Source: an uncultured Alphaproteobacteria bacterium | GTDB lineage: Bacteria > Pseudomonadota > Alphaproteobacteria > HIMB59 > GCA-002718135 | Assembly (NCBI GenBank): GCA_902522865.1 | Contig: CABYXC010000003.1 | Coordinates: 33,672-97,671, forward strand | Reading direction: 5' to 3' | DNA length: 64,000 bases | Part shown: one piece after another, positions 8,588 through 42,071 of the stretch | How the letters are laid out: each line of letters begins with the position of its first letter | How positions within the stretch are numbered: the stretch's first letter is position 1 | Translations under genes and position numbers: made by a program | The notes under the pieces: model-generated | Seen by the model: only the letters and a program-made list of their open reading frames with translations | What the model was told of the DNA's origin: nothing | The model's database searches: none

Positions 8588-8605
8588 TCCGATTATTAAA
8601 ACTAC

Positions 8606-9592: not shown

Positions 9593-10574
9593 TTTGACCA
9601 CACTTAATTCCACACTGATCAACCCAGTGACCTGGTTCAACTTCAATTAATTTCATTTCAATTTTACCATCTTTACCCTCTGGATTGTGATGAGGGCATC
9701 TAGTTCTAAACACACAGCCTGTAGGTCTATCTAATGGACTTGGAATATTTCCAGGTATTGGGGATAATGGTGCATCTAAGTTATTTATATCAGGCAAGGC
9801 TTGCAATAAACCTTTTGTATAAGGATGTTTGGGATTTTTAAGAATCTCATTTACTGGACCTTTTTCTACTACACTCCCTAAATACATTACTGCTACATGA
9901 TCAGCTACCTGGGCAATAACACCTAGATCATGAGTAATAAATATTACTCCCATTTGATATTCTTTTATAATATCTTTAATTAAGTTAATTACCTGAGCTT
10001 GAATTGTAACGTCTAAGGCAGTTGTTGGCTCATCTGCCAATAAAAGTTTTGGCATAGTTGAAAGCGCCATAGCTATCATCGCTCTTTGACGCATTCCTCC
10101 AGATAATTCAAATGCATATTGATTAAACCGTTTTTCTGCATCTGCAATACCTACTCTTTTAAGCATATTTATAGATATAGATTTTGCTTCATCTTTATTA
10201 ATATTTTTATGTATTAGTAATTGCTCAACCATTTGCGCACCAATTTTTATAGCTGGAGCAAAACTTGCCATAGGCTCTTGAAAAATCATTGATACTTTTC
10301 CACCTCTAATTTTTTTTAAGTCTTGTTTAGAAGTAAATTGAAGAACATTTTCGTTATCTAATATTATTTCTGCATCTTCATTATAAGAGGTGTTACCTGG
10401 GTTTAATTTCATAATTGATTTAGCTGTCACAGATTTACCTGATCCAGATTCACCAACTATACCTAGTACTTCACCTTGATCTACAGAAAGTGAAATGTTT
10501 TCAACTGCTGTAATTCTACCTTCATCAGTATCAAATTTTACATCTAAGTTTTTTACTTCTAATAAATGACTCAT
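9585..10574 (-). CDS. Dpp/Opp-type ABC transporter ATP-binding protein (DppD/OppD-like)
   Basis: Walker A 'GESGSGKS', signature 'LSGGMRQR', Walker B 'LLLADEP'. Confidence 0.85.
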   Translation of the reverse strand: MSHLLEVKNLDVKFDTDEGRITAVENISLSVDQGEVLGIVGESGSGKSVTAKSIMKLNPGNTSYNEDAEIILDNENVLQFTSKQDLKKIRGGKVSMIFQEPMASFAPAIKIGAQMVEQLLIHKNINKDEAKSISINMLKRVGIADAEKRFNQYAFELSGGMRQRAMIAMALSTMPKLLLADEPTTALDVTIQAQVINLIKDIIKEYQMGVIFITHDLGVIAQVADHVAVMYLGSVVEKGPVNEILKNPKHPYTKGLLQALPDINNLDAPLSPIPGNIPSPLDRPTGCVFRTRCPHHNPEGKDGKIEMKLIEVEPGHWVDQCGIKCGQNG

Positions 10575-10575
10575 A

Positions 10576-21982: not shown

Positions 21983-22750
21983 TTATTTAGCTGTCCATCC
22001 TCCATCAATTACTAACGAAGAGCCAGTCATCATTGATGCGGCATCTGAAGCAAGATACACTACAGCACTAGCAATATCACTTTCTGTTGCTACTTTTCCT
22101 AAAGGTATGTTTTCAATTACAGATTTTTTAAAACTTTTATCTTTAAAAAATTTTTTGACCATTGGGGTTTCCACAAATGTAGGGCAAACGGAATTAACTC
22201 TGATGTTGTGCTTAGCCAAATCAATAGCCATCCCTTTGGTAAGACCTTCAACACCAAACTTAGTCATATTATAAACACTTCTAAGAGGAGCACCTACTTT
22301 ACCTAACTGAGAAGAAATATTTATTATTGATCCACCAATTTTTTTTCTATTTTTTGATTTAAGCATAACTTTTGTAGCTAATTGAGCAATATCGAATGAT
22401 GCTTTAATATTAAGATCAACCACTTCACTCATATCTTTTCTTTTAATTTTGGTGAAATATTCAGGTCTATTTGTGCCAGCATTATTTACTAATATGTCTA
22501 ATTTATTGATTTCAGAAAATATTTTTTTTATTTCTTTTAAATTAGTTACATCACACACATAGTAACTACATTTCTTTTTGAGTTTTTTAATTTTGCTTTG
22601 AATAATTAAAAGATCTTTCTCTGTACGACTAAGAATTATTACATTTGCGCCTGCTTCTGCTAATGCTATAGCACATGCTTTACCTATGCCTTTGCCTGAC
22701 CCTGTCACAAGAGCAGTCTTATTTTTTACATTAAAATTTTTTAGAAACAT
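21983..22750 (-). CDS. Short-chain dehydrogenase/reductase (SDR)
   Basis: 'TGSGKGIG' cofactor motif, 'NNAG', catalytic 'YNMTK'. Confidence 0.85.
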   Translation of the reverse strand: MFLKNFNVKNKTALVTGSGKGIGKACAIALAEAGANVIILSRTEKDLLIIQSKIKKLKKKCSYYVCDVTNLKEIKKIFSEINKLDILVNNAGTNRPEYFTKIKRKDMSEVVDLNIKASFDIAQLATKVMLKSKNRKKIGGSIINISSQLGKVGAPLRSVYNMTKFGVEGLTKGMAIDLAKHNIRVNSVCPTFVETPMVKKFFKDKSFKKSVIENIPLGKVATESDIASAVVYLASDAASMMTGSSLVIDGGWTAK

Positions 22751-22763
22751 TTGATCTGATTAT

Positions 22764-23423
22764 TTACAATGAAAAAATAGATTGATCTAATAAATTCATT
22801 TTTTTAATACACATTTGAAAACTATCTTCTAAATGGTAATCACCTGGGAACCCAATGCATTTAATTCCAGCGTTTACAGCAGAATTACTACTTTCTTCAG
22901 TATCCTCTATTGCAAGACAATCTTCTGGCTGTAAATTTAATTTATCTAATGTGACTTTGTATATTTCTGGATGTGGTTTTTCATTTTTAACAAATGATTT
23001 ATTACCAATGAATTCAAATTCTTCTTTTGAAATTTGACCCGAAAGACTTTCAAATACTGCATCGACATTATTTAAAGTTGTAGAAGTTGAGAAAGCAAGT
23101 TTAATATTATTATCTTTTGTATACTTAATTATTTCACCAACGCTCTTTCTTAATTTTTGTTTATTCTGAATAATGTATGAGCTAAAGATTTCTGTTTTTC
23201 TATTTCTAATTTGTGAAGCATTTACATTAGTATTATTTTTTTCAGCAAAATCTTCTACCCTTTTTGTCCCGCCAGATTTTTTTAACAAAATTTTATAATC
23301 TTGCTCATCCCAATACCAATCAAGTCCAGCTTCTTTAAAAGCTTCATTAAATGAGTTACGTTGAATGTTAGAAGATTCAATTAGTGTCCCGATAGATCCA
23401 AATATAAGTGCTTTATATTTCAT
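22764..23423 (-). CDS. HAD-superfamily (beta-phosphoglucomutase-like) protein with a degenerate motif I
   Basis: Motifs II-IV are recognisable ('FSTSTT', 'KPHPEIY', 'AIEDTEES'). Motif I reads 'LIFGSIGTL' instead of DxDGT; I confirmed this by retranslating 23380-23423. Confidence 0.6.
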   Translation of the reverse strand: MKYKALIFGSIGTLIESSNIQRNSFNEAFKEAGLDWYWDEQDYKILLKKSGGTKRVEDFAEKNNTNVNASQIRNRKTEIFSSYIIQNKQKLRKSVGEIIKYTKDNNIKLAFSTSTTLNNVDAVFESLSGQISKEEFEFIGNKSFVKNEKPHPEIYKVTLDKLNLQPEDCLAIEDTEESSNSAVNAGIKCIGFPGDYHLEDSFQMCIKKMNLLDQSIFSL

Positions 23424-23441
23424 AAGATTAGAAATTTATTA

Positions 23442-24323
23442 TTAACCTTTTACTGCTCCAGCAGTTAAACCACTTATTAATTGTCTTTGGAAAAACATGA
23501 TTATCATAAAAAGTGGTGCAGTTGCTGAAACAACACTTGAGACTGCCCACATATAATTTCCACTATGTTCAATTGTGCCCAAATAAGCATTAATTTTAGG
23601 AACCATAGTATAATTCTGCTGATTTAAAAGAAGTGAAGTAACTGTAAAATCATTATAGGCTAACATCATGCTGAATAAACCTGCGGTAACAACTCCAGGC
23701 CACATAACAGGCATTATAACAAAGCGAAACGCTTGAAAATATGAACAGCCATCAATTAGTGCACTTTCATCTAACTCTTTAGGAACTGTTTTAAAGAAGG
23801 AATAAAGTAACCATAATGTAAAGGGTTGATTGATTGCAACTAAAACAATTATGGTAGTTGGAAGTATGCCCCAAACATTCAATTGGAAGAAAGGAAACAG
23901 ATAACCAGAAACTAATGTAATGTGTGGCATCGCTCTAAAAATCAAGGCAGCTATTAAAATCCAAAAAGTATATTTATATGTCGATCGAGACAAGGCATAA
24001 GCACCCAATGTTCCTAAAAATAAAGAGATCGTAACAACTGAAACAGTGATAATAATTGTATTCATTGTTGCTTTCCAAAATTCACCTTCAGTCCAAGACT
24101 CTACATATGCCTTAACTGTAGAAGTATCTCCTGTTTCTATCAAAGTATTAACTCCTGTGACTGCAAACATCCAATCAGCTCTTGAGAAAAAGTCGGCTTT
24201 TACTTTAAATGATCCCCAAAAAGTCCATATAAAAGGAAACACAGAAATAATTAACCAAGCAAGAATAAAAAAACTATTTATTAAAATTAGTTGTTTTGAG
24301 TATCTATTAATTTTTGATTCCAT
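23442..24323 (-). CDS. Carbohydrate ABC transporter permease (MalG/UgpE-like)
   Basis: 6 TM segments with EAA loop 'ESALIDGCSYFQAFRFVIMP'. Confidence 0.8.
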   Translation of the reverse strand: MESKINRYSKQLILINSFFILAWLIISVFPFIWTFWGSFKVKADFFSRADWMFAVTGVNTLIETGDTSTVKAYVESWTEGEFWKATMNTIIITVSVVTISLFLGTLGAYALSRSTYKYTFWILIAALIFRAMPHITLVSGYLFPFFQLNVWGILPTTIIVLVAINQPFTLWLLYSFFKTVPKELDESALIDGCSYFQAFRFVIMPVMWPGVVTAGLFSMMLAYNDFTVTSLLLNQQNYTMVPKINAYLGTIEHSGNYMWAVSSVVSATAPLFMIIMFFQRQLISGLTAGAVKG

Positions 24324-24324
24324 A

Positions 24325-25353
24325 TTATCTTTCTGTCCTAAATTCTCTCCATGTTCTTATAAGTACTGGTGTTAATAGAATTGCTACACCAATAATAGTT
24401 AACATAGATGTTGCTCCTGCAGATCCAAATAACATTTTGTTTTCACTTCTTAAGTCATTATAAATCATCCAAGAAAGTGATTGAGCAACTCCTTCAGCAG
24501 CAAAACCGATTATTGGCTCAAGAACCCTAAAATTATCCATTAGACAAATTAATATAATAAATGTTGCTACCGGATAAAGATGTGGAATAACAATGTGTCT
24601 GACTCGTTCATATCTTGAGGCGCCATCTATGATCGCTGCCTCAATTGGATCTTGAGGAACAGTTTGTAATGCAGCATAAAAGACAACAAAAGCAAATGGT
24701 GTATTGTGCCAAATCCCATAAATAATCAGAGTAATCCAAGTCAATTGACTTGAGGACTTTAGTGATAGGTTTGGATCATCAAATAAGAATTGAATAAATG
24801 AACCTAATATTCCCTTAGCATCTATCATCCAAAATAAAACAAGAGATCCAATCAATGGTGTTACAATCATAGGCAGTATAACACCAAAAATGGTTGGGCC
24901 TTTTAAACTTTTTGTAATGGTGTTTACACTTAAAGCAACGATGAAACCTAAAACTACAACTGGTGGCGTAACTGCAAAACAAAATGTAAGTGTAAATAAA
25001 AGTGCTTTGTAAAAAGGTAAATTTAGTAAGGTATCCGTAAACTCAGCTATGGATGAGGAATTAGTCCAAGCCTCTTTAATTTCATCAAAAGCCAAATGGT
25101 TTCTATCGCCGTATGTTCCTAAACCATTGAATCTTCCAAGAGGTTGTTCTTCTTGTAATTTTGTTGTTGCTTCAATATCAACTTTTGTTTCTGTTTTGCA
25201 TCCAAATGGATCACATTTTTCTACTTCCATTAAAATTTGTTCAGGCTCAATGTGAAGAGATTGAAAAAAACTAGAAATAATTGGAAGGCCAATAAATAAT
25301 AGCATTGCCAATCCACTTGGAAAGAAGAACCAAAAAAATGTTCTGTGGGGCAT
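24325..25353 (-). CDS. Carbohydrate ABC transporter permease (MalF/UgpA-like)
   Basis: EAA loop 'EAAIIDGASRYERVRHIVIPHL' and a long first periplasmic loop. Confidence 0.8.
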   Translation of the reverse strand: MPHRTFFWFFFPSGLAMLLFIGLPIISSFFQSLHIEPEQILMEVEKCDPFGCKTETKVDIEATTKLQEEQPLGRFNGLGTYGDRNHLAFDEIKEAWTNSSSIAEFTDTLLNLPFYKALLFTLTFCFAVTPPVVVLGFIVALSVNTITKSLKGPTIFGVILPMIVTPLIGSLVLFWMIDAKGILGSFIQFLFDDPNLSLKSSSQLTWITLIIYGIWHNTPFAFVVFYAALQTVPQDPIEAAIIDGASRYERVRHIVIPHLYPVATFIILICLMDNFRVLEPIIGFAAEGVAQSLSWMIYNDLRSENKMLFGSAGATSMLTIIGVAILLTPVLIRTWREFRTER

Positions 25354-25365
25354 CTATTTCTTACT

Positions 25366-25397
25366 AAAAAAAAAGTGGAACATAATAATGTTCCACT
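25366..25397 (-). terminator. Intra-operon rho-independent terminator/attenuator after the binding-protein gene
   Basis: Perfect 10-bp stem AGTGGAACAT(25374-25383)/ATGTTCCACT(25388-25397) with a 4-nt loop. On the minus strand it is followed by a U9 run (plus-strand A9, 25366-25374). Confidence 0.7.
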
Positions 25398-25419
25398 TTA
25401 TCATAAATATTTATACGGT

Positions 25420-26655
25420 TTATAGAAATCCTTGCTCAGTAGCTTTTGCTACATAAGCAGCTTCTACATCCGCTAATGCTTTTTCAGCAGACTCATTTCC
25501 TTGAAGGAATTCAACAAGTTCTGTGCTCAAAGCACCATGTAATAGACTCATGTATGGTAAGCTTGGGTAAGGTGTTGCACCTCTATTAGCAGCGTCAACA
25601 ACTGGCCCTGCTGTATCTCCAGGCGAATAACCATCAATCAACCAAATTGTTGCATTTGGATTAGCATTTGCCATTTCTGTTGAAGTTGCTGCACCTAAAA
25701 GAGCTCTAAAAGATGCTTCTGCATTTTCATCAGAAGTGTTTGTTGCAATTCCAAATCCATCCCACCATAGAGTTGTTGCTGGCTTACTTCCACCACCTAC
25801 AGATGGAGAAGGAGCTAATCTAGTATCAGCTTTAATTGCTTGATCACCTTCGTCATCTAACAATGAAGCTGCACCTGAGTTCCAGATATGCATTAATGCT
25901 ACATTACCAGACTCCCATTCTTCTTTAACTGCATTTGTATCTTGAGTTAAGAAATCAGGGTTACTTACTTCGGTTAATCTTTTAAGCATATTAAGAGCAG
26001 CTACACCTTTAGCGTTATTTACACTAACTTCAGCTGTTCCAGCTTTAAAGAAATCACCTCCATGACCTAGGTACATGTTTACAAACTCTTGACCTAAGTT
26101 CCATCCAGATTTGAAAGCACCAGCATATGGGTTAGCCATTTTACCAGAAGCTTTAATTTTTTCTGCAGCCGCAATTACCTCTTCATATGTTGAAGGAACT
26201 GCGATACCTAAATCATTAAGAATACTTTCTCTGTACCAAAGATGTTGAGCATTAGCCATAAATGCTACTGCATAAATTTTACCATCAATCACGATTTTTT
26301 GATTGTCTTGTAATGCACTTCCGTATTTAGCAACTAAATCATCAAGTGGACGAATTAAGTTATCATTCATTAAAGTTGTAATTGAACCATTAGTAACAAG
26401 TTTAGCAGAGAATTCAGCTGGGTTAGCTGAAAGTGCTGCAACTTGTAATTTATTATGATCAACAGAATGTGTTACAGAAAAATCTGCATCAGGTCCTGCA
26501 CAACTTTTTACTTCATCCATGAAAATTCTGTATGTTGTAAATTCGTTTGCTAGAATCTTTATTGATCCATCTGTTACTCCACAAGGTGAGTGCCCACCGG
26601 CATATGCACTTGTGCTAACAAATGTGAACAATAGAGCTATTAATAGTTTTTTCAT
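25420..26655 (-). CDS. Carbohydrate-type ABC transporter substrate-binding protein (family 1), secreted
   Basis: Signal peptide 'MKKLLIALLFTFVSTSAYA'; 411 aa; higher GC and expression-type codon usage. Confidence 0.8.
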   Translation of the reverse strand: MKKLLIALLFTFVSTSAYAGGHSPCGVTDGSIKILANEFTTYRIFMDEVKSCAGPDADFSVTHSVDHNKLQVAALSANPAEFSAKLVTNGSITTLMNDNLIRPLDDLVAKYGSALQDNQKIVIDGKIYAVAFMANAQHLWYRESILNDLGIAVPSTYEEVIAAAEKIKASGKMANPYAGAFKSGWNLGQEFVNMYLGHGGDFFKAGTAEVSVNNAKGVAALNMLKRLTEVSNPDFLTQDTNAVKEEWESGNVALMHIWNSGAASLLDDEGDQAIKADTRLAPSPSVGGGSKPATTLWWDGFGIATNTSDENAEASFRALLGAATSTEMANANPNATIWLIDGYSPGDTAGPVVDAANRGATPYPSLPYMSLLHGALSTELVEFLQGNESAEKALADVEAAYVAKATEQGFL

Positions 26656-26677
26656 ATATTTCCCCTTATTAATAAAG

Positions 26678-26690
26678 TGTGAAATTCACA
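26678..26690. promoter_or_regulatory. Palindrome TGTGAA-A-TTCACA upstream of the binding-protein gene
   Basis: Perfect 6-1-6 palindrome, 23 nt upstream of the start codon at 26655. Confidence 0.4.
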
Positions 26691-26746
26691 TTTAAGTATA
26701 AATCCTTTATATTGGTATTAGAAAATAATGCAATAATATGAATTGA

Positions 26747-26764
26747 TATTCAAGATTTTGAATA
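26747..26764. promoter_or_regulatory. Candidate operator TATTCA-AGATTT-TGAATA
   Basis: Perfect 6-N6-6 palindrome, 20 nt upstream of the LacI-family gene start. An extra TGAAT half-site lies at 26739-26743. Confidence 0.5.
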
Positions 26765-26783
26765 TTGAAATGGGGGATAATTC

Positions 26784-27782
26784 ATGAGTTTTAAAAAGAC
26801 TGCGACATCACAGGACGTAGCAAAACTAGCAGGAGTATCCCAATCAGCTGTTTCTAGATGTTTTACAAAAGGTGCTAGCATTTCTAGTAGAACAAAATTG
26901 AGAGTCTTGGAAGCAGCTAGAAAATTAAAATATAAAGCACCTAATATATCTTCTAATTCAATATCTAATGACGATAGCGGATTAGTTGCTGTCATTTTAC
27001 CTTACGTTACAAGCAGATATTATCCAGAAGTTTTAATAGAGTTACATGAAGCACTTAGGAATGGGGGGTTTAGAATTTTATTAATTACAACTGATGATGG
27101 AGAAGAATTAGATGAAAAATTAATACAGCCATACTTAAAAGAAAAACTCATTGCAATAATATCCGCAACAAAACCCACTGATAAATTTGTCGAAGATTGC
27201 AATCAAAAAAGAATACAATTTATTGCTTATAATAGAAGTTGGAATATACCAACGATAAGTTCCGTTGCATGTGATCATCGTAACGGAGGAGAATTAGTTG
27301 CAGAATATTTTACAAAGAAAAATCATAAAAATATTGGCCTCATTGAAGGACCAAAAGGATCTTATGTTAGCGATGAGCGATGCAAAGGTTTTAAAAATTA
27401 TCTTAAAAATAATAAAAAAATTAAATTAAATATTGAAAAAGGTTTTTTTACTTATGAAGGTGGATATCAAGCAACTGAAAAAATTTTTAATAAAAACATA
27501 AGTGCAATATTTTGCGCTGACGACACAATGGCGTTTGGATGTTTAGATTATATTAAAAAAAATACTTCATTAAAAACACTTTCTCAATTAGAAATTATTG
27601 GTTATGACGATATATCAATGTCAGCTTGGGAATCATATAACCTTACAACTGTAAGACAACCTATTAGACAAATGTCAAAAATAGCAACTCAGTTAATAAA
27701 TGAATATATTAAAGATCCAGATTTTGAACCTATAAATCATATTGTACAGGGAAGACTTATAAAAAGAAAAACTACAAAATAA
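26784..27782 (+). CDS. LacI-family transcriptional regulator
   Basis: N-terminal HTH 'TSQDVAKLAGVSQSAVSRCF' plus a periplasmic-binding-protein-like sugar domain, 332 aa. Confidence 0.85.
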   Translation: MSFKKTATSQDVAKLAGVSQSAVSRCFTKGASISSRTKLRVLEAARKLKYKAPNISSNSISNDDSGLVAVILPYVTSRYYPEVLIELHEALRNGGFRILLITTDDGEELDEKLIQPYLKEKLIAIISATKPTDKFVEDCNQKRIQFIAYNRSWNIPTISSVACDHRNGGELVAEYFTKKNHKNIGLIEGPKGSYVSDERCKGFKNYLKNNKKIKLNIEKGFFTYEGGYQATEKIFNKNISAIFCADDTMAFGCLDYIKKNTSLKTLSQLEIIGYDDISMSAWESYNLTTVRQPIRQMSKIATQLINEYIKDPDFEPINHIVQGRLIKRKTTK

Positions 27783-27783
27783 T

Positions 27784-28203
27784 TTATTTAAATTTTAATC
27801 CCATTTGTTCGAAAACACCATGGTTATCTACCATAACATAATTATCTAAAAATTTTCCATCTTTAATGGTCCAAAAATCTGAAAATTGCATTTTTATAGA
27901 TTTGCCTGTTGGCTCTACTCCAAGATATGTTCCACTATGCGTGCCTGTTAAAAATCCCGTTGCACTAATCCACTCACCTTCTGCAACCACAATATCATTT
28001 TTTACATGATAATCTGGAAATGCTTCATAAAAAGGTTTTAGAACTTTATATTTAAAATTTTCTATACCATGGATATCACCAAAACCTGGAGGGCCGTGCC
28101 AGACCATATTATCATGCCAGTACTTGTGTTGTGCTTCTAGATCTTGAGCATTAAGTGCATCATACATATCAGCTAATAATTTTTTACTTTCATCTAAAGT
28201 CAT
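27784..28203 (-). CDS. NTF2-like/SnoaL-type protein ('predicted ester cyclase' type), single domain
   Basis: 139 aa. 'MYDALNAQDLE...W..NMVWHGPPGFG...FPDYH...GTH.G.YLG..PTGK' is the typical SnoaL-like pattern. Confidence 0.6.
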   Translation of the reverse strand: MTLDESKKLLADMYDALNAQDLEAQHKYWHDNMVWHGPPGFGDIHGIENFKYKVLKPFYEAFPDYHVKNDIVVAEGEWISATGFLTGTHSGTYLGVEPTGKSIKMQFSDFWTIKDGKFLDNYVMVDNHGVFEQMGLKFK

Positions 28204-29339
28204 TTTTTATCTCCTAAAATTTGCATTAGAATTGCAAGCTCATTAAAACCAGTCCACTCTTTAATAATTTTATTATTTTTAATTTCCCATTGAGTGATTC
28301 CCCACAAATACACTTCTCTATTAGATGGTTGGCCATATGAGCCATTCCCTTTATGCGTTCCTACTGCGCCCCAACGAACCGATACTAAGTAACCATCTTT
28401 TGTATTTCCCATCCAGTATAAATCTTCAATACTGAGTGCAAGATCAGGAAACGAAGCTAAAAGTGATATTATAAATTTTCTTAATTGCAAAACTCCTTTA
28501 AATTTACGACCAGTTGAACCTTCAAATTCTACCTTACTAGAGTATGCTTTATTTATTGCAGAAAAGTTTCGTCTATTCCAAATTGTATCATAAACTGCAT
28601 GAACAAACTCTCTTACATTTGTAATTTTATCTGGAATATCAAAACTAATTGGTTTTAATTTGGTAATATTTCTTGTTGGTTTAGAGTTTTTAAAATGAGG
28701 AGCATAGGGCCCTGCAATTCCCTCATGAACAAGTTGCTTGGCAACTTGATTTAAATCTAATCCGAGTTGTTTAATTAAACCTGCTGTATCGTAAACAACA
28801 TTTTCATAATAAATTTCATTATTTTTTGCTACACAATTTGCAATACAAAATAATCTTACTTTTTTACCAGTTGGTGTAGAAAATTTGCTAAATCCTGTAT
28901 TTGTTCCAGTAATAATTGTTCTATGAGAAGTATGAAAACTTGCATTTTGATCTCCTGCCCAAATAACTTCATCTGCAAATAATCGAATATCTGGAAAGGC
29001 GTTGTTTGTGTGTATTGTATCAGCAACTATTTTTTCAGATCCAGATTGTAAACCAAACTCATCCCAAACTCTGCAATCTTTACTGTAGGTGTCATAGATA
29101 TAACCAATATTTTTTTCTTCCCATATTTGATACGTAATCCTTACAATATAATCAATTATATTTTTATACTGATCCTCAAACCCCTTCATTGATTGATGTT
29201 TAAGTTTTTTTGGTTTTGGATTTAATGATTTAGCTGTTCCTCCACCCCCGTATGCTTTTAATGAAATATCATAACTCTTAGGCATATGATGATCTTGAAG
29301 AGCTTCTGGTCTTTTATCTGTAATTTTATTAAATTTCAT
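28200..29339 (-). CDS. Tandem NTF2-like/SnoaL-type protein (two domains), paralog of 31584..32576
   Basis: Shares 'MKGF..Q(Y/F)K...DYI..ITYQIWE' and 'TG.K(V/L)....IA.C' with the paralog. The paralog begins at the equivalent of internal Met51, so an alternative start at 29189 would give about 329 aa. Confidence 0.55.
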   Translation of the reverse strand: MKFNKITDKRPEALQDHHMPKSYDISLKAYGGGGTAKSLNPKPKKLKHQSMKGFEDQYKNIIDYIVRITYQIWEEKNIGYIYDTYSKDCRVWDEFGLQSGSEKIVADTIHTNNAFPDIRLFADEVIWAGDQNASFHTSHRTIITGTNTGFSKFSTPTGKKVRLFCIANCVAKNNEIYYENVVYDTAGLIKQLGLDLNQVAKQLVHEGIAGPYAPHFKNSKPTRNITKLKPISFDIPDKITNVREFVHAVYDTIWNRRNFSAINKAYSSKVEFEGSTGRKFKGVLQLRKFIISLLASFPDLALSIEDLYWMGNTKDGYLVSVRWGAVGTHKGNGSYGQPSNREVYLWGITQWEIKNNKIIKEWTGFNELAILMQILGDKK

Positions 29340-29373
29340 AATTTGTATTTATATTGAGATACATTTAAAAATA

Positions 29374-29391
29374 TTTCAAAGCAATGAAATT
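29374..29391. promoter_or_regulatory. Candidate operator variant ATTTCA-AAGCAA-TGAAAT
   Basis: Perfect 6-N6-6 palindrome, 35 nt upstream of the minus-strand start at 29339. Confidence 0.45.
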
Positions 29392-29393
29392 TT

Positions 29394-29411
29394 ATTCAAA
29401 AAAATGAATAT
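29394..29411. promoter_or_regulatory. Candidate operator TATTCA-AAAAAA-TGAATA
   Basis: Perfect 6-N6-6 palindrome, 36 nt upstream of the plus-strand start at 29447. Its centre is 20 bp from the neighbouring site. Confidence 0.5.
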
Positions 29412-29446
29412 TGTCTTTTTTAGTTTATTAATATAATCAAAATGAA

Positions 29447-30451
29447 ATGACTGATCTCCAAGCAGAAAAAAAATTAGTATTAGATTATTTCAATGAAATA
29501 GATAGTTGCAACATTGATTCATTATCTGAAGTGATATCCAAATACACATCAGAAGATTTTAGTATGAAATGCACACATCCGTTTAACGAATTAGGCAGTA
29601 TAGATCTTGTTGCTAATGATCTTTGGAAACCAATTAAAAATTCATTTTCACCTATACAACGTCGATTAGATATATTTTATGCTGGGATAAATTCACTAGA
29701 TAAAAATAAAGGGAAATGGATCTCCAGTATGGGTCATTTCATGGGTGTTTTCAATAAACCGTTTGTAGGTCTTAAACCAAATTATAAATCTATTTTATTA
29801 AGATTTGCTGAATTTTATAAAGTGGAGAATAATAAAATTACTGAAGGAGCGATTTTTTTAGATGTAATGAATTTAATGCAGCAACTAGGTCTTTCTATAA
29901 TTCCTGAATCTACAGGTCTTGTTTGTGTAACGCCAGGACCAATGAATCATAAAGGTCTAAAATTTGATATTTCTAATAAAAGTGAAAGTCAAAAAACATT
30001 AGATTTAATTCATAGAATGCGTGATCGACTTGTTAAAGGATCTAAAATGCAATCTTATAAAGAAGAATTAGAATTAGATTGGCATGATGACATGATTTGG
30101 TGGGGACCGGGAGGAATAGGAGCTTCATATACTATTGATGGTTATCAAAAAGGTCACACAAAACCATTTCAAGATGGCTTAGAGTTTGTTCGTTTCAATG
30201 GACACATACTTAGTAGCTCTGAAGATGATCTAGGTGGTTGGTTTGGTTGGCCAAATTTAATTATGAAACCTAAAGGAGAATATTTAGGATTAACAAATGC
30301 AAGTGATATTGAATCAGAAATGAGAGTTGTAGATTTATATCGAAGAGATGGAGATAGACTGGCCGAAAACTGGATCTTTATTGATCATTTACATTTTTTA
30401 AAAAAACTAGGAGTGGATCTTTTAGAAAGAGCAAAATTTTTAAATCAGTAA
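29447..30451 (+). CDS. Tandem NTF2-like/SnoaL-type protein, paralog of 33651..34748
   Basis: The C-terminal half ('DWHDDMIWWGPGGIG...ENWIFIDHLHFLKKLGVD') parallels the 139-aa protein and the C-half of 33651..34748. Confidence 0.5.
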   Translation: MTDLQAEKKLVLDYFNEIDSCNIDSLSEVISKYTSEDFSMKCTHPFNELGSIDLVANDLWKPIKNSFSPIQRRLDIFYAGINSLDKNKGKWISSMGHFMGVFNKPFVGLKPNYKSILLRFAEFYKVENNKITEGAIFLDVMNLMQQLGLSIIPESTGLVCVTPGPMNHKGLKFDISNKSESQKTLDLIHRMRDRLVKGSKMQSYKEELELDWHDDMIWWGPGGIGASYTIDGYQKGHTKPFQDGLEFVRFNGHILSSSEDDLGGWFGWPNLIMKPKGEYLGLTNASDIESEMRVVDLYRRDGDRLAENWIFIDHLHFLKKLGVDLLERAKFLNQ

Positions 30452-31579
30452 TTAGATAACTTTTGAGGCAAGTTTAGTGCCCTCAACTAATGCTTGGAGC
30501 TTTTCATAACAAATTTTTTCATCAATTTTTCCAAAACCAGCAAATGTACTAAAACCACAATCTGTCCCTGCCATTAATTGATCTTTTGGAATGACTGTAG
30601 AAAACTGAATTAATCTATCTGCAACAACTTCTGGATGTTCAACAAAATTAGAGGTTGAGTCGATTACACCAGGTACTAGGACTTTATCTTTTGGTAACTT
30701 TATATCTTGAAAAACTTTCCATTCATGTGCGTGCCTAGGATTAGAAGATTCAATGAGAAAGTATTTTACCTTTGATTTCAAAATTATAGGTAATATTTTC
30801 TCTAGAGCAATATCATGTGTGTGGGGTCCTTCATAATTGCCCCAACATATATGCATTCTAGTTTGCTCAACATCTACATTAGATAATGCTGAGTTTAGGC
30901 ATTCAATTTGCAGCTCTGCACGTTTAATAAACTCATCTTCAGATAAATTTTTAAAATTCATATGTCTTGCTAAAGCAAGGTCTGGGCAATCTAATTGAAC
31001 TTGGATATCTGATTTTGTTATTAGCTCATATTCTTTAGCCATAATATTAGATAATTTATCCAAATATTCATCTTCGGTACTATAAAATTTATTTGGCATA
31101 AAAACATTTATGACACCAGGTGATGCTGAGTTCATAAATGCATGTCGGTGATTAAGTTTATCAAGTGAATTTTTAAAATTATTTATATCGTGTAGAAGAG
31201 ACGTTTCATCTTTTACTTTTAATTCGTTTGTACAACATGGTCTGGTATAAGTTGGCGTACCACCACTTTTAGCAATCTTTTCTTTGTATTCTGGAAAATC
31301 ATCAAGATCAGCAGGTGCTCTTCTTTCGCTTTCACCTGAGAATCCATCAATTCTATCTTTAATGTAAGTAGCATAACTAATTTTACTCATCTCGCCATCA
31401 CTGACAAAATCAATTCCAACATCAAGTTGTTTCTTCACCACACTTTCGACGTTGTTTTTTAATACTTCATCAAAACTACTTTGACTGAAATTTTCACCTT
31501 TATCTTTTGCAAATAAAAATTCTGAAAGTTCTTTTGATCTAGGAAGGCTTCCAACATGTGTTGTCAAAATATTAGACAT
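30452..31579 (-). CDS. MetE-like protein (cobalamin-independent methionine synthase II family, Zn alkyl-transferase fold)
   Basis: 'TTHVGSLPRS' N-terminus; likely Zn ligands 'HICWGNYEGPH' and 'GTDCGFSTF'. Its stop directly abuts the convergent gene (30451/30452). Confidence 0.7.
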   Translation of the reverse strand: MSNILTTHVGSLPRSKELSEFLFAKDKGENFSQSSFDEVLKNNVESVVKKQLDVGIDFVSDGEMSKISYATYIKDRIDGFSGESERRAPADLDDFPEYKEKIAKSGGTPTYTRPCCTNELKVKDETSLLHDINNFKNSLDKLNHRHAFMNSASPGVINVFMPNKFYSTEDEYLDKLSNIMAKEYELITKSDIQVQLDCPDLALARHMNFKNLSEDEFIKRAELQIECLNSALSNVDVEQTRMHICWGNYEGPHTHDIALEKILPIILKSKVKYFLIESSNPRHAHEWKVFQDIKLPKDKVLVPGVIDSTSNFVEHPEVVADRLIQFSTVIPKDQLMAGTDCGFSTFAGFGKIDEKICYEKLQALVEGTKLASKVI

Positions 31580-31583
31580 TAAA

Positions 31584-32576
31584 TTAACCTGTTTTTAATA
31601 AAATCTGTTTCCAGATCATGGTTTCATCATAGAGAACCCATTCATTTTTAATACCTCTTGCTCCAAATTCTACATGATTAATACCCATTATATAAATTTT
31701 CGAATTAGAGGCTTTCCCAAAAAGACCATCTCCTTCATGTTTACCTACTATAGACCATCGTACTGAGGCTTTTTTAGGTTCATATTTTTCTTCAGTAAAA
31801 GCAATGTGCTCGACTGAGAACAATGCGTTAGGAAAAGCATTTCTTAATTGTTTCCAAAATTTTATTACCTCATCTCTACCATAGTGAGTTTTTCCCCCTG
31901 GTTGAAATTGCTGTATGGCTCTGTCATAACTATCATTTATTGTTTTCTGTAAATTGATGTTCATAATAGAGGTTAAGATATTTGCATATAATTCTCCAAT
32001 GTTACCAGATGCTAATGTAGGAGATTTATAAATTGATTTAACAGGTGTATTTTCATCAAAGGGTTTACTAGCTTTTTCAGGACCACCCTCGTCTTTAATA
32101 AGATTGCTTGCAAATTTCTTGGGGTCAATTCCAATTTGTCTCACAATTGCTCCTTGATCTCTCACAAGCCACTCATCATAAACTTGATTATTCATACATG
32201 CACAATCAGCAATAGTGCGGTAATACAGTTTTTTTCCTGTCGCTTTCCCATAAATCCCATCAACAGAATGAGTAGAGGTTGATAAAATGCGGTGTGATGA
32301 AAAATATCCCTCTTCATCACTTCCTGTCCAAATTACATCTTCACCTAAAAGTGTTCTGTCGGGAAATAGTTTTTTACTAGCATAAGTACTTTCTATTACC
32401 GGGTCTGCACCATAAATTACTCCAGATGGAGATCTTGTAGGTGTTGGAAGATTTACGTTTGGGGTATCAGCATAATAATCTCTTATTGCTTCAACATCGT
32501 TGTTTTCCCAAATTTGATATGTGATCTTTAAAATATAATCAGGAAAATCTTTGAATTGTGCATCAAATCCTTTCAT
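31584..32576 (-). CDS. Tandem NTF2-like/SnoaL-type protein, paralog of 28200..29339
   Basis: 330 aa with 'DYILKITYQIWENN' and a second domain ending 'NEWVLYDETMIWKQI'. Confidence 0.55.
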   Translation of the reverse strand: MKGFDAQFKDFPDYILKITYQIWENNDVEAIRDYYADTPNVNLPTPTRSPSGVIYGADPVIESTYASKKLFPDRTLLGEDVIWTGSDEEGYFSSHRILSTSTHSVDGIYGKATGKKLYYRTIADCACMNNQVYDEWLVRDQGAIVRQIGIDPKKFASNLIKDEGGPEKASKPFDENTPVKSIYKSPTLASGNIGELYANILTSIMNINLQKTINDSYDRAIQQFQPGGKTHYGRDEVIKFWKQLRNAFPNALFSVEHIAFTEEKYEPKKASVRWSIVGKHEGDGLFGKASNSKIYIMGINHVEFGARGIKNEWVLYDETMIWKQILLKTG

Positions 32577-32587
32577 ATAATTAATAT

Positions 32588-33559
32588 TTAATTAGTTTGT
32601 CGTATTATAAATAAATTACCATCATGATTACTTATCTGTCTTATTGAACGAAGTGAATTTTTTGGAACAGAAAAAGTATCTTTTTCTTTAATTACAACTT
32701 TGTCTCCATCACAATCTATTTCCCATTCACCAGATAAACAATGATACACTTCTGATTTCTCCAGTTTGTATTCATGTATATGAGCACTCTTGCCGTTGAG
32801 AAGTGAAAGGCTAAAACCTGTTGCATGCGGTATATTAGGGGTAAAAGATTTATCATGAATTTGAAACTGATCAATGTAGTTGATAATTTTATTAGATTGA
32901 TAGTGATCATCATCGACAAAATATTTATCTTTATCATTAAATCGAATAACAAACTTTTCTATGTCTTCTGAAGAGTAATGATCGAAACTCTCTAATTCAT
33001 TATCTTCTAGTGGCTGAATAATTTTAGTTTCATCTGTTATTTTCTGTTTCTGTGTGTCGATTAAAGAATTATCATTCATTAATACCATGCCAGATTCTTT
33101 TGCATCTTTTAAAAGTTTAGGTGTCCAAGTAATAACACCTGGATCATTTTCACCTAACACAACAAACATTAAAGCTTCTTCATCACTTACATTTTGAAAA
33201 CCTCTGAACATGTTTGTGGGAAAAGAAGCGATGTCACCTTTTTTTAGTATTACTTCTCCTTCTGTGCCATCAACACCCCAATAAAAACGCCAGGCACCTG
33301 AGTGAATTATAAAAACTTCTGCTGTTGTGTGACTATGTAATCCAGAGCCATTCATCGGCGCAGCACTGACAGCACCAATATTAAAGCCATGTTCTTCAGC
33401 TATTTTAACATTTTGTTTAGCATCTTCACTTACACCAGGTCCTATAACTGAATAATTTTTCCTATCTTGATGACCTTTTAGTTTTCCCTCAACAAATGGT
33501 ATATTACTAGGAATAAGTTCATCGAATTTGGCTAATCTAGATGTAATATTAATTGACAT
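32588..33559 (-). CDS. Bicupin protein (two cupin barrels)
   Basis: The N-domain 'GSGLHSHTTAEVFIIHSG' fits G-x5-HxH-x3-E. The C-domain has 'HIHEYKLEKSEVYHCLSGEW'. Confidence 0.55.
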   Translation of the reverse strand: MSINITSRLAKFDELIPSNIPFVEGKLKGHQDRKNYSVIGPGVSEDAKQNVKIAEEHGFNIGAVSAAPMNGSGLHSHTTAEVFIIHSGAWRFYWGVDGTEGEVILKKGDIASFPTNMFRGFQNVSDEEALMFVVLGENDPGVITWTPKLLKDAKESGMVLMNDNSLIDTQKQKITDETKIIQPLEDNELESFDHYSSEDIEKFVIRFNDKDKYFVDDDHYQSNKIINYIDQFQIHDKSFTPNIPHATGFSLSLLNGKSAHIHEYKLEKSEVYHCLSGEWEIDCDGDKVVIKEKDTFSVPKNSLRSIRQISNHDGNLFIIRQTN

Positions 33560-33574
33560 ATTGTAATGATCTTT

Positions 33575-33593
33575 TATTCATTTTTTTTGAATA
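33575..33593. promoter_or_regulatory. Candidate operator variant TATTCA-TTTTTTT-TGAATA (N7 spacer)
   Basis: Perfect arms, 16 nt upstream of the bicupin start at 33559. Confidence 0.4.
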
Positions 33594-33594
33594 T

Positions 33595-33612
33595 TATTCA
33601 AAATAATGAATA
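33595..33612. promoter_or_regulatory. Candidate operator TATTCA-AAATAA-TGAATA
   Basis: Perfect 6-N6-6 palindrome, 39 nt upstream of the start at 33651. Its centre is about 19.5 bp from the neighbouring site. Confidence 0.5.
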
Positions 33613-33650
33613 AATCAATTATTATTTAACAATAGTGTTATTAAATTATT

Positions 33651-34748
33651 ATGGCAAATAAAATACAAAACTTTGATACAGGTGAGAAAGATAACTCAAA
33701 CATAATTCATTTAGATCTTGATCCAAAGATAAATATTGAAAACAAAATATATTTTAAAAATTTATTAAAAAAAATTACCGAGTGCTCTTTAGATAATTTA
33801 GAAGAAAATCTTGAAAATTTATATCATGTAGATGCTGAGTTTAATGGATTTCATCCAATTAATGAAATTAAAGGAATTGAAGAAATAAAAAATAAATATT
33901 TAATACCTCTAAAGAAGGCATTCCCCGATCTCGAAAGAAGAAATAATCTAGTTATTGGAGGAGCATTTAGAGATAAAGTTTTTGTTTCATTTATTAGTCA
34001 TTTAACTGGAACTTTTAAAAATGAGTGGTTGGGCGTAAAGCCGACTAACAAAACAATTTATCTTAGAACATGTGAAGCGCATCAGATTACAAATAATAAA
34101 ATAATAAAATCCTATACATTAATTGATACTGTAGATTTTATCCGTCAGGCTGGATATTGGCCTATAAATAAATCTCTTGGGGTAGAAGGGATGTGGCCTA
34201 GTCCAATCACAGGTGATGGAGAAAATAATCAAAATTTAGATAAGGAACTGTCTCTTCGATCTTTGAATCAAGATTTAACCATGCAAAGAAGTTTAAATAT
34301 TAAACCCGAGACTGAGCCAGGTCTATCAAAAGATCAAATAAGGGAGAAATTAATTAATCATCCTCAACAAGATTATTGGCATCCAAAAATGATGTGGTAT
34401 GGGCCAAGTGGTATAGGTACAGCTAGAGGTTTAGATGGTTTTATTGATCATCATCAACTCCCATTTAGACTTACATTCAAGGACAGAGATTATTGGAAAA
34501 TCGGTCATTATATTGAAATTGGAGATGGAAATTATTCTATGACTGGTGGTTGGCATAGTATTCAGTGTGTTCATGGATCAAGTGATTGGCTAGGATATAA
34601 ACCTACTCAAAAAAAAATAACAATGAGAGTCATGGATTTTTATTTACATCATGAAGGGTTAATTAGAGAAAATTGGGTTCCAATCGATATAGCACACATA
34701 TTAGATCAAATAGGCATTGATATCTTTAAATTAATTCATAAAAAATAA
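33651..34748 (+). CDS. Tandem NTF2-like/SnoaL-type protein, paralog of 29447..30451
   Basis: 365 aa. The C-half '[15 protein letters not shown]...[18 protein letters not shown]' parallels the paralog. Confidence 0.5.
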
Positions 34749-34750
34749 TT

Positions 34751-36070
34751 ATGGCAATTGAATATTTAAAAAAAGGTTTAGATGAAAAACAAAGAATTGA
34801 AGATAATGATAAAGTAAAAAAAATTGTTGAGGAAACGTTAAGTAAAATTGAATCAGAAGGTGATAAATATGTTAGAGAGTTATCTCAAAAATTTGATAAC
34901 TATTCTCCAGATAGTTTTAGATTAAGTGAAGATCAAATAAATCAATTAATGAGTGAAGTCTCTGATCATGACAAAGAAGATATTAAATTTGCTCAAAAAC
35001 AAGTGCGATCATTTGCGGAAGCACAACTTAAAACTTTAAGTGAATTAGAAGTAGAAACGCATCCAGGCGTTATTCTTGGTCATAAGAATATACCAGTGCA
35101 AGCAGTTGGATGTTATGTACCTGCTGGAAAATTCCCAATGGTAGCTTCTGCTCATATGTCAGTTGTTACTGCCTCTGTTGCTGGGGTTCCAAGAATTGTT
35201 GCTACTACGCCACCTTTTAAAGGTAAGCCAAATCCAGCTGTCGTTACAGCAATGAAAATGGGCGGTGCTCACGAAATTTATGTTTTGGGAGGAATGCAAG
35301 GAGTTGGTGCTATGGCTATAGGTACAGAAACTATTAAACCTGTAGATATGCTTGTTGGACCTGGCAATGCATTTGTTGCTGAAGCAAAAAGACAATTGTA
35401 TGGCAAAGTTGGTATCGATTTATTTGCTGGTCCAACTGAAACAATGGTTATTGCAGATGAAACTGTTGATGGTGAAATATGTGCAACAGACTTATTAGGA
35501 CAAGCCGAACATGGATATAATTCTCCTGCTGTGATGATAACAAACTCAAGAAAACTTGCAGAAGAAACATTTAAAGAAATTGATAGAATTTTAGAAATTT
35601 TACCTACTAAAGAAACAGCAAGTACAAGCTGGAGAGATTATGGAGAAATAATTTTATGTGATACCTATGAGGAGATGTTATCTAAAGCAAATGAAATAGC
35701 TTCAGAGCATGTTCAAGTTATGACAAAAAAAGATGATTGGTTTTTAGAAAAAATGACATCTTATGGTGCTTTATTTTTGGGTGCTAGAACTAATGTTGCT
35801 AATGGTGATAAAGTTATAGGCACTAACCATACTCTTCCTACTAAAAAAGCTGGAAGATATACTGGTGGTTTGTGGGTTGGTAAGTTCATTAAAACCCACA
35901 CTTATCAAAAGATTACAACCGATGAAGCAGCTACACTTATTGGAGAATATGGATCTAGACTTTCACACCTTGAAGGATTTATTGGTCACGCTGAACAATG
36001 TAACGTTAGAGTGAGAAGATATGGGAAAAAAAATGTTGGATATGGAAAACCAGCAGGAGAAAAAATTTAG
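34751..36070 (+). CDS. Histidinol-dehydrogenase-family NAD-dependent dehydrogenase; candidate sulfopropanediol 3-dehydrogenase (HpsN-like) rather than housekeeping HisD
   Basis: HisD-family motifs '[29 protein letters not shown]' and 'LLGQAEHG'. It has '[15 protein letters not shown]' where HisD has, from memory, a YVPGG..YPSS-type motif. It sits in a non-his context, 2 nt after an NTF2-like gene. Confidence 0.6.
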
Positions 36071-40301: not shown

Positions 40302-42071
40302 TTATTGTACTACTGTATCTTGAGGGTCTATACCGGCAACTTCAACTGGTGCTTTCATAGCATCTCTTCTAAAAGGTTCTCCCAGTTCTTGGTTTAACAT
40401 TACTTCTATAAAAGTAGTTATACCTTCCATTTGATCCTTGCAAGATTGTTGCAAAGCTTCTGTTAGTTCCTCTTGAGTGTGAACTTTAATACCTCTAAAT
40501 CCACACGCTTCTGCAATCTTTGCATAGCTTAATTTAGGATCAAGTTCTGTTCCAACAAAATTATTATTATACCAAAGTGTAGTATTTCTTTTCTCCGCTC
40601 CCCATTGATAATTTCTAAAAATTATCATTGTAATATTTGGCCAACCTTCTCTATTACATGAAGTCATTTCACTCATACTTATTCCAAATGCGCCGTCACC
40701 TGCAAAACCAACAACTGGTGTATTTGGACAACCTATTTTTGCTCCAATTACTGATGGAAAACCATAACCACATGGTCCAAATAAACCCGGTGCTAAATAC
40801 TTTCTACCATTCTCAAATGTAGGATAAGCATTACCGATTGCACAATTATTTCCTATATCACTTGATATAATTGCATCTTCAGGAAGACCTGCTTGAATAG
40901 CTCGCCATGCCATTCTTGGTGACATTTTCTCTGGTTCTCTATCTCGTGAATCTTTATTCCAAGATGTGCCAGGATCATCTTCTTCATGATCAAGGCCAGT
41001 TAATGTTTGAAGCCAAGCTGACTTTGTCTTATGAATTAACTCTTCTCTTTCTCTTCTATCTTTATCACCTGCATTTGTTGTAAGGTTTTCTAAAATTTGT
41101 TCTGCAACTAGTTTTGCGTCTCCACAAATACCAACACTTATTTTTTTTGTTAAACCAATTCGATCGGAATTGATATCAACTTGAATGACATCCGCATTTT
41201 TTGGCCAATAATCTATTCCATAACCTGGTAAAGTTGAGAAAGGATTTAACCTTGTGCCAAGTGCGAGAACTACATCTGCCTTAGATATTATTTCCATTGC
41301 TGCTTTAGATCCATTGTAACCTAAAGGACCAACCGCAAGAGGATGTTTGCCAGGAAAACTATCATTGTGTTGGTATCCGCAAGCAACTGGAGCACTTAAT
41401 TTTTCAGCAAGTTTTTTGCAATCATCAATAGCGTCAGCTAAAATCACTCCAGCACCAGATAAAATGACTGGGAATTTTGCATTAGATAAAAGATCAGCAG
41501 CTTCTTTAATTGCTTCTGTTCCACCTGCAGGTCTTTCAAATTTAATTATAGGTGGCAGATCAATATCAACAACTTGAGTCCAAAAATCTCTTGGTATATT
41601 TAATTGAGCAGGAGCAGATCCTTTAATAGCTTTTGAAATAACTCTATTTAAAACTTCTGCAACTCTTGAGGGATCTCTTACTTCTTCTTGATAGCACACC
41701 ATATCTTTAAATAAGTTCATTTGCTCGACTTCTTGGAAACCTCCTTGACCAATAGTTTTGTTAGCTGCTTGAGGAGTAACTAAGAGCATTGGAGTATGAT
41801 TCCAAAAAGCAGTTTTTATAGGTGTAACTAAGCCAGTTATACCAGGACCATTTTGCGCAATACACATTGCGATTTTTCCTGTTGATCTTGTATAGCCATC
41901 AGCCATAATTCCACCATTTGACTCATGAGCAACATCCCAAAATGTTATTCCAGCCTTAGGAAAAAGATCTGATATTGGCATAAACGCAGATCCAATTATT
42001 CCAAAAGCGTGCTGAATACCGTGTTTTTGTAAAACTTTTACGAAAGCCTCTTCTGTTGTCATTTTTGCCAT
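40302..42071 (-). CDS. xsc: Sulfoacetaldehyde acetyltransferase (TPP-dependent)
   Basis: 589 aa. There is near-continuous similarity to my recollection of characterised Xsc ('TTEEAFVKVLQ.HGI.HAFGIIGSA', 'VTPQAANKTIGQGGFQEV', 'VCYQEEVRDPSR', 'NPFSTLPGYGIDYWPK', 'IQVDIN.DRIGLTKK'). Confidence 0.9.
   Translation of the reverse strand: MAKMTTEEAFVKVLQKHGIQHAFGIIGSAFMPISDLFPKAGITFWDVAHESNGGIMADGYTRSTGKIAMCIAQNGPGITGLVTPIKTAFWNHTPMLLVTPQAANKTIGQGGFQEVEQMNLFKDMVCYQEEVRDPSRVAEVLNRVISKAIKGSAPAQLNIPRDFWTQVVDIDLPPIIKFERPAGGTEAIKEAADLLSNAKFPVILSGAGVILADAIDDCKKLAEKLSAPVACGYQHNDSFPGKHPLAVGPLGYNGSKAAMEIISKADVVLALGTRLNPFSTLPGYGIDYWPKNADVIQVDINSDRIGLTKKISVGICGDAKLVAEQILENLTTNAGDKDRREREELIHKTKSAWLQTLTGLDHEEDDPGTSWNKDSRDREPEKMSPRMAWRAIQAGLPEDAIISSDIGNNCAIGNAYPTFENGRKYLAPGLFGPCGYGFPSVIGAKIGCPNTPVVGFAGDGAFGISMSEMTSCNREGWPNITMIIFRNYQWGAEKRNTTLWYNNNFVGTELDPKLSYAKIAEACGFRGIKVHTQEELTEALQQSCKDQMEGITTFIEVMLNQELGEPFRRDAMKAPVEVAGIDPQDTVVQ

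Follow-up and report, generated by a model that had tools for sequence, protein, structure and literature searches.

The gene at positions 34751-36070 of a 64,000-nucleotide stretch of DNA from an uncultured alphaproteobacterium of the GTDB lineage HIMB59 (contig CABYXC010000003.1 of assembly GCA_902522865.1; the whole stretch is called the window below) encodes a paralog of histidinol dehydrogenase (HisD). The protein belongs to clade A, an uncharacterised, widespread and mislabelled subfamily that is sister to HpsN, the dehydrogenase of 2,3-dihydroxypropane-1-sulfonate (DHPS); members of this subfamily are called A-type here. Judged from sequence and gene context, the product is probably a four-electron alcohol-to-carboxylate dehydrogenase that serves a LacI-controlled gene island and acts on an imported compound or an intermediate, not on DHPS. 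It would depend on NAD+ and Zn2+ and, like HisD and HpsN, turn a primary alcohol into the carboxylate in two steps via a bound aldehyde, the carbon next to the alcohol bearing a hydroxyl or amino group. This would be one step of a LacI-repressed catabolic island with a CUT1 ATP-binding cassette (ABC) importer, a short-chain dehydrogenase/reductase (SDR), five NTF2/SnoaL proteins, a bicupin and a MetE-like protein. The physiological substrate would be either imported or formed within the pathway, and would be neither DHPS nor histidinol. Both the reaction type, by homology, and a substrate other than DHPS are inferences.

HpsN is the nearest characterised relative of the protein, as the preliminary description of this DNA had anticipated in naming HpsN as the family paralog for comparison. 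When all PDB sequences were searched, the best match was HpsN of C. pinatubonensis (CpHpsN; 8V35, 400 bits), followed by the (R)-DHPS dehydrogenase of R. pomeroyi (RpHpsN; 8WWE, 361 bits), while the best true HisD, from Brucella (4G07), reached 260 bits. Identities are 48% to CpHpsN, 46% to RpHpsN and 34-35% to HisD proteins. The phylogeny proposed in the preliminary description was computed as a maximum-likelihood tree of 71 proteins (support given as ultrafast bootstrap/SH-aLRT). The set took in representatives of a 1.8-billion-protein library as well as homologs from named genomes and from an even sample of 400 alphaproteobacterial genomes. The protein groups with HpsN and not with HisD. 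Clade A (99/95) comprises the 34751-36070 protein, 23 relatives (61-85% identity) and, further removed, P0124 and P0127. The HpsN clade, clade H (100/97), has a core (100/99) that holds CpHpsN, RpHpsN and a SAR11-like homolog, and clades A and H are sisters at 100/99. The 34751-36070 protein lies outside the clade spanned by all characterised HpsN, and the core HpsN clade excludes it. A literature search on HisD-like dehydrogenases, on SnoaL together with histidinol dehydrogenase, and on mycosporine catabolism found no characterised member or description of clade A or its island.

The residues that recognise the sulfonate in HpsN differ in clade A. In CpHpsN with R-sulfolactate bound, the sulfonate lies on zinc and is held by His126 and Lys353, and HpsN has a specific motif, G-R-Y-A/S-H, that ends in His126, versus G-S-A-P-L in HisD (Burchill et al. 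2024, PMC11382572). Pocket positions of the 34751-36070 protein were assigned by alignment to 8V35; an AlphaFold2 model built from a 12-sequence alignment had a mean pLDDT of 62.8, with values below 50 across the active-site loops 110-146 and 343-384, and was not used. Residues were compared between 80 A-type and 25 HpsN-type sequences, in the numbering of the 34751-36070 protein. Position 127 is Lys in 73 and Arg in 6 A-type sequences versus Arg in all 25 HpsN-type ones; position 128 is Phe (54) or Tyr (26) versus Tyr (25); position 129 is Pro (80) versus Ser (15) or Ala (9); position 130 is Met (67) or Leu (13), and never His, versus His (25 of 25); position 375 is Trp (80) versus Ser (24); and position 377 is Gly (80) versus His (22). 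By this alignment, the sulfonate-recognising part of the HpsN pocket is rebuilt with hydrophobic and aromatic residues. The preliminary description had reported that the substrate loop deviates from the HisD pattern, and the loop that it flagged is exactly the published specificity loop; all of the strings that it quoted occur in the protein (residues 122-136 and 203-214, and QAEHG at 251-255). K354, the equivalent of the sulfonate contact Lys353 of CpHpsN, is present in 80 of 80 A-type relatives, but it does not single out HpsN, because GDK paralogs at a greater distance have it as well.

The catalytic apparatus is conserved. The reading frame translates to 439 amino acids plus a stop, with no internal stop, and matches PF00815 (Histidinol_dh) with 447 bits (residues 15-421 against profile positions 4-411 of 411). 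Predicted zinc ligands are Q251, H254, D353 and H413'; by alignment, the CpHpsN equivalents are Gln248, His251, Asp352 and His411*, and those of the catalytic pair E319-H320 are Glu318 and His319. The ligands and this Glu-His pair are invariant in the 80 A-type relatives and, together with H360 and K354, across both the A-type and the HpsN-type clades. Intact zinc ligands and catalytic residues in both clades argue by homology for conserved chemistry, that is, NAD+-dependent four-electron oxidation of a primary alcohol with a neighbouring heteroatom on the zinc. D49, the equivalent of the NAD-specifying Asp46, is likewise invariant, and the product is predicted to prefer NAD+.

The sister genomes amount to a natural experiment. 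Among 116 genomes of the same GTDB family, about 75 carry an A-type ortholog at 83-100% identity, 15 carry instead a 428-amino-acid protein, here called b-type, that is 45-48% identical to the A-type, and none carries both. The b-type gene occupies the identical slot: the orthologous tandem SnoaL gene immediately precedes it, the genes downstream are the same, and the island proteins on either side show 57-85% identity. In the tree, the b-type falls within the core HpsN clade, where it is sister to the SAR11-like homolog (100/100; 71% identity). Descent of the A-type and b-type as diverged orthologs was considered and rejected, because the tree that forces them together has a log-likelihood 321.6 lower (approximately unbiased test, p = 7e-6); the b-type is therefore a replacement by a paralog rather than divergence in place. 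Its motif is GRYNN (GRNNY in one genome) where the SAR11-like relative has GRYAH, so that His126 is lost in favour of Asn. The sulfonate-binding His is lost independently in two lineages that serve the island, and its absence from both is the strongest indirect argument that the island substrate is not DHPS. Recruitment of an HpsN derivative suggests at the same time that the island substrate is near enough to DHPS for such recruitment.

HpsN of the SAR11 type offers a reference point from streamlined genomes. CuHpsN of Pelagibacter HTCC1002 (PU1002_02401 / WP_006997118.1) shares 57% identity with RpHpsN. Assays with R-DHPS gave a Km of 106 mM and a kcat/Km of 1.7e-3 mM-1 s-1, compared with a Km of 1.07 mM for RpHpsN (Liu et al. 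2024, PMC11131964). The 34751-36070 protein was evaluated as an ortholog of CuHpsN and rejected, with 46% versus 57% identity to RpHpsN and a position in a different clade. A genome from another order (G503; 1.3 Mb, ~31% G+C, 99% complete) encodes, next to pta and close to tpa and ald, a 57%-identical homolog with GRYAH that is probably of the Pelagibacter type. That SAR11-type HpsN (L077:9073-10359) retains GRYAH, yet with Phe374 and Gly376 (GGLFVGK) it resembles the A- and b-types rather than CpHpsN and RpHpsN, which have GGLSVHK; Phe374 and Gly376 might be related to the 106 mM Km of CuHpsN for DHPS. Strain HIMB59 has only a 33%-identical HisD, and one genome of the same order (1.4 Mb, single contig) has no homolog at E <= 1e-95, a threshold that excludes ordinary HisD; the host may therefore belong to the HIMB59/AEGEAN-169 group and not to Pelagibacterales proper.

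The 34751-36070 gene closes an island (21983-36070) that contains an SDR, a HAD-like protein, two ABC permeases, a CUT1 solute-binding protein, a LacI regulator, one single and four tandem SnoaL/NTF2 proteins, a MetE-like protein and a bicupin (Table 1). When one genome from each species was scanned, relatives turned up at 590 or more loci, and the context figures given here come from the best 80. Hosts of these 80 loci range from oligotrophic ocean plankton to rhizobia and include Ruegeria, Roseibium, Paracoccus, Halomonas, Vreelandella, Rhizobium, Mesorhizobium, Bradyrhizobium, Bosea and Enterobacter wuhouensis. When a neighbour is defined as a homolog of a window island gene at most 10 kb from the HisD-like gene, the partners are the SDR (61 of 80 loci), LacI (52), an ABC ATPase (42), the bicupin (38), the permeases (35-38), the binding protein (36), the NTF2 genes (24-35) and the MetE-like protein (31). 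The whole set is essentially one co-directional operon in Roseibium sediminis; most of it is found in Bosea eneae and in a Thiotrichaceae metagenome-assembled genome, and likewise in Ruegeria intermedia bar one unassigned opposite-strand open reading frame. None of hpsO, hpsP, hpsKLM, suyAB and cuyA is among the conserved partners in the best 80 loci.

A-type and true HpsN also occur side by side. In an even sample of 401 alphaproteobacterial genomes, with HpsN type defined by GRYxH and four further hits left unclassified, 36 genomes have the A-type and 28 the HpsN type, with the two together in 10 (G129, G202, G220, G225, G265, G372, G402, G411, G491 and G494); related genomes in this sample are not independent. 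Retention of two paralogs side by side argues for different functions.

Several observations weigh against a substrate other than DHPS. Lys354, a helper in sulfonate binding in CpHpsN, is invariant and leaves room for an anionic, even sulfonated, substrate. An enzyme of the true HpsN clade fills the slot in 15 sister genomes, so the island substrate may resemble DHPS, and HisD-family enzymes are promiscuous at millimolar concentrations (PMC11131964). The window is also rich in sulfonate genes that could consume sulfolactate (ComDE, Xsc, Pta and a taurine-type module). The presence of ComDE-like and Xsc enzymes, as first described, is borne out by the family models: Xsc (40302-42071) scores 954 bits on TIGR03457 (cut-off 676), and ComE and ComD (3445-4511) pass TIGR03846 and TIGR03845, the former barely. 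The ComE-like subunit (3445-4014) reaches 221.9 against 221.5 on the sulfopyruvate decarboxylase beta model, a margin of 0.4 bits, and phosphonopyruvate decarboxylase comes second among its matches, so that its substrate is less certain than in the case of Xsc. Pta, a taurine-type aminotransferase/Ald pair and, 15 kb upstream, an Ldh_2 (ComC-like) gene are also present.

Together with the relationship to HpsN and the label of sulfopropanediol 3-dehydrogenase that JGI gives to close homologs, these genes would fit a genuine DHPS (or sulfolactaldehyde) 3-dehydrogenase, whose sulfolactate would pass to the ComC-like dehydrogenase, ComDE, Xsc and Pta on the same contig. We nevertheless regard this as unlikely, and the DHPS 3-dehydrogenase candidacy put forward in the preliminary description is not upheld. 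Met replaces the motif His126 and four other clade-specific positions differ; the protein falls in a sister clade; the A-type coexists with true HpsN; and the conserved island partners include neither hpsOP nor desulfonation genes. Rhizobium, Bradyrhizobium, Mesorhizobium and Enterobacter have the island too, and the sulfonate genes adjoin the A-type gene only in the lineage of the window, not in the conserved island. Even CuHpsN, a related enzyme from a streamlined genome in which His126 is still present, has a Km for R-DHPS of 106 mM. Oxidation of some other primary alcohol, which had been left as an equal possibility, ranks as the better reading.

Less probable still is activity on another small C3 sulfonate or amino alcohol, such as the conversion of L-cysteinolate to L-cysteate that the HpsN of Bilophila carries out. 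HpsN-clade enzymes accept L-cysteinolate (PMC12814064), Lys354 is conserved, and the distant relative P0127 lies with an aminotransferase, a D-serine-dehydratase-like gene and a TRAP transporter. The substrate-binding residues of the Bilophila enzyme are, however, identical to those of CpHpsN and those of the 34751-36070 protein are not, the island has no cuyA, cuyB or cuyC, and its importer is of the sugar-type CUT1 family under LacI control.

The gene is a paralog and not the housekeeping hisD. Its host assembly (1.41 Mb, 35 contigs, ~30% G+C, 73% complete) has exactly two PF00815 genes, and the other one (C14:8190-9470) scores higher on the NCBI hisD model TIGR00069 (494 bits) and lies within a murA-hisG-hisD operon. 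The check for a separate hisD suggested earlier has thus a clear answer, a canonical copy beside hisG, and the 34751-36070 protein is not the sole HisD homolog. No other his genes lie nearby, as first described; none occurs in 22764-44036 (~13 kb upstream and ~8 kb downstream). The non-biosynthetic HisD paralog that had been proposed is borne out. A redundant histidinol dehydrogenase is very improbable, even with 433 bits on TIGR00069 (cut-off 243.8) and the histidinol dehydrogenase label that NCBI gives to homologs, since a canonical hisD exists, identity to HisD proteins is only 34-35%, GDK stands in place of the HisD GDY and GKFPM in place of the G-S-A-P-L-type loop, and the gene belongs to a LacI-regulated catabolic operon. 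Both HisD and HisD paralogs pass TIGR00069, so that this model does not separate them.

For the favoured reading, a dehydrogenase of an imported compound or intermediate other than DHPS, we can only speculate about the substrate: it may be polar and carbohydrate-like and bear a -C(OH)-CH2OH group, as do, for example, polyols, glyceryl glycosides and C7-cyclitol/mycosporine-type compounds. The compounds that RraA-like or HpcH aldolases cleave are 4-hydroxy-2-oxo acids. The sugar-type importer and the recurrence of RraA-like and HpcH aldolases fit such a substrate, and oxidation of a hydroxymethyl group on a tertiary carbinol would give the 4-carboxy-4-hydroxy pattern used by RraA-type aldolases. 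PDB sequence searches gave no substrate clue: those with the tandem SnoaL, bicupin, MetE-like, binding and SDR proteins returned remote or generic matches only. The best PDB relatives of the CUT1 binding protein are trehalose/maltose-binding proteins at no more than 46 bits, and the island SDR is generic and FabG-like, with the DHPS-dehydrogenase name on none of its 60 best PDB matches listed.

Table 1. Positions of the A-type gene, its specificity determinants, the surrounding island and the b-type counterparts (window coordinates unless a locus is named).
Feature	Position	Strand	Remark
HisD-family paralog (A-type, sister clade of HpsN)	34751..36070	+	439 aa
G126-K127-F128-P129-M130 codons	35126..35140	+	in place of HpsN G-R-Y-A/S-H; Met130 replaces sulfonate-binding His126
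D353-K354, H360 and GGLWVG loop	35807..35881	+	Zn-ligand Asp and Lys common to HpsN (HisD Tyr); clade-invariant Trp375 and Gly377
Tandem SnoaL/NTF2 gene	33651..34748	+	same-operon upstream partner, 2-nt gap
Exact palindrome TATTCA-N6-TGAATA	33595..33612	.	putative LacI operator; divergent promoter region of SnoaL-HisD operon
SDR, HAD-like protein, two ABC permeases, CUT1 solute-binding protein	21983..26655	-	
LacI-family regulator	26784..27782	+	
One single and three tandem SnoaL/NTF2 proteins, MetE-like protein, bicupin	27784..33559	.	
b-type loci	L034:9114-10400 (G010), L035, L036, L037		same slot as window 34751-36070

The arrangement of the operon and its likely control can be read from the window. 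The stop of the tandem SnoaL/NTF2 gene places the start of the A-type gene 2 nt behind an NTF2-like gene, the spacing given in the preliminary description. TATTCA-N6-TGAATA has three exact copies in the 64 kb (26747, 29393 and 33595), all within divergent promoter regions of the island, and these precede the transporter operon, an NTF2 gene and the SnoaL-HisD operon. The copy at 33595 overlaps a -35-like hexamer before the SnoaL-HisD operon; little weight attaches to this hexamer, since the promoter scan found fewer sites than in shuffled sequence. A second palindrome, TATTCA-N7-TGAATA, lies at 33577-33595 in the bicupin/SnoaL-HisD intergenic region, where it abuts the exact N6 site and would make two adjacent operator-like sites.

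Relatives differ in the genes that accompany the A-type. Recurrent extra members are an RraA-like aldolase (13 of the 80 loci) and an alpha/beta hydrolase (11 of 80). The RraA-like (HMG/CHA-type) aldolase lies inside the island, between the MetE-like and tandem SnoaL genes, in L076:5081-5785 (G453), in L095 and among the 13 named loci; the window has none, and no homolog was found in the 73%-complete host genome. Loci without the island have a HisD-like/SDR pair with other importers and hydrolases, and examples of its neighbours are CUT2 ABC, TRAP and major facilitator superfamily (MFS) transporters, a metallo-beta-lactamase-fold protein, a 3-hydroxyacyl-CoA-dehydrogenase-like protein, a PF04199 cyclase and an HpcH aldolase. 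In halomonads (L103, Halomonas sp. G11, 3146-11140; L161, Vreelandella venusta), the NTF2/bicupin/MetE-like set is replaced: the A-type and SDR occur with LacI, a metallo-beta-lactamase-fold protein, a 3-hydroxyacyl-CoA-dehydrogenase-family protein, a CUT2 sugar ABC system and an OpuAC-type binding protein. Enterobacter wuhouensis WCHEW120002 (L157) has two HisD-like genes 5 kb apart (1779-3074 and 7983-9305): its A-type (65% identity) occurs with an MFS transporter, an SDR, an alpha/beta hydrolase, an HpcH aldolase and a bicupin, and the other gene (45% identity) with tandem SnoaL genes, LacI and an amidase. P0124, a distant relative with 47% identity, likewise adjoins LacI, a tandem SnoaL gene and an SDR. 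P0127 (L043:7200-8492, NCBI GCA_964369655.1), also at 47% identity, no longer has the catalytic His (AYENVHV in place of SEH) and reads GDR in place of GDK, and an AraC regulator completes its TRAP transporter, aminotransferase and D-serine-dehydratase-like cluster; this protein may have different chemistry or be inactive.

DHPS is regarded as one of the major currencies in marine carbon and sulfur cycling, and field studies count 'hpsN' by homology-based annotation. The JGI and NCBI labels of close A-type homologs are probably both wrong. The A-type is at least as common as true HpsN in the even alphaproteobacterial sample, so counts based on homology alone may overstate the potential for DHPS degradation, especially in streamlined oligotrophs. 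Five fixed specificity positions provide a simple sequence rule to tell A-type from HpsN. On balance, we lean slightly towards the broader proposal that A-type proteins, recognised by G-K/R-F/Y-P-M/L and Trp375, commit an abundant polar compound of algae or plants to an undescribed catabolic pathway under repressor control, by its alcohol-to-acid step, at 590 or more loci. In that case, a sizeable part of the 'hpsN' signal of SAR11-like plankton in ocean meta-omics would be A-type and would not represent DHPS oxidation. A soluble dehydrogenase that can be followed at 340 nm offers a tractable entry into this orphan catabolic island.

Compared with known systems, the 34751-36070 protein resembles HpsN (EC 1.1.1.308; C. 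pinatubonensis 8V35 and R. pomeroyi 8WWE) in its HisD fold, 46-48% identity, zinc ligands, Glu-His pair and GDK, but G-R-Y-A/S-H becomes G-K-F-P-M, HpsN Ser374 becomes Trp and HpsN His376 becomes Gly, and the A-type operon is a different one that lacks hpsO, hpsP, hpsKLM, suyAB and cuyA. Motif, clade membership and gene context all differ from those of HpsN, and the protein is therefore not classed as HpsN. HisD itself (EC 1.1.1.23; E. coli 1K75 and Brucella 4G07) shares the family, fold, metal site and reaction type, but has GDY rather than GDK, a G-S/T-A-x-L/Y substrate loop rather than GKFPM, identities of 34-35% and a his context that the A-type gene lacks. Pelagibacter CuHpsN is similarly an HpsN relative from a streamlined marine genome, but it is not an ortholog, and its SAR11-like homolog keeps GRYAH and lies with pta, tpa and ald. 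With HpsN of Bilophila sp. 4_1_30, an L-cysteinolate/DHPS dehydrogenase, the protein would share the four-electron oxidation, within the HpsN lineage, of a 2-substituted primary alcohol, whereas the Bilophila enzyme has the CpHpsN substrate-binding residues and a cuyABC cluster (PMC12814064).

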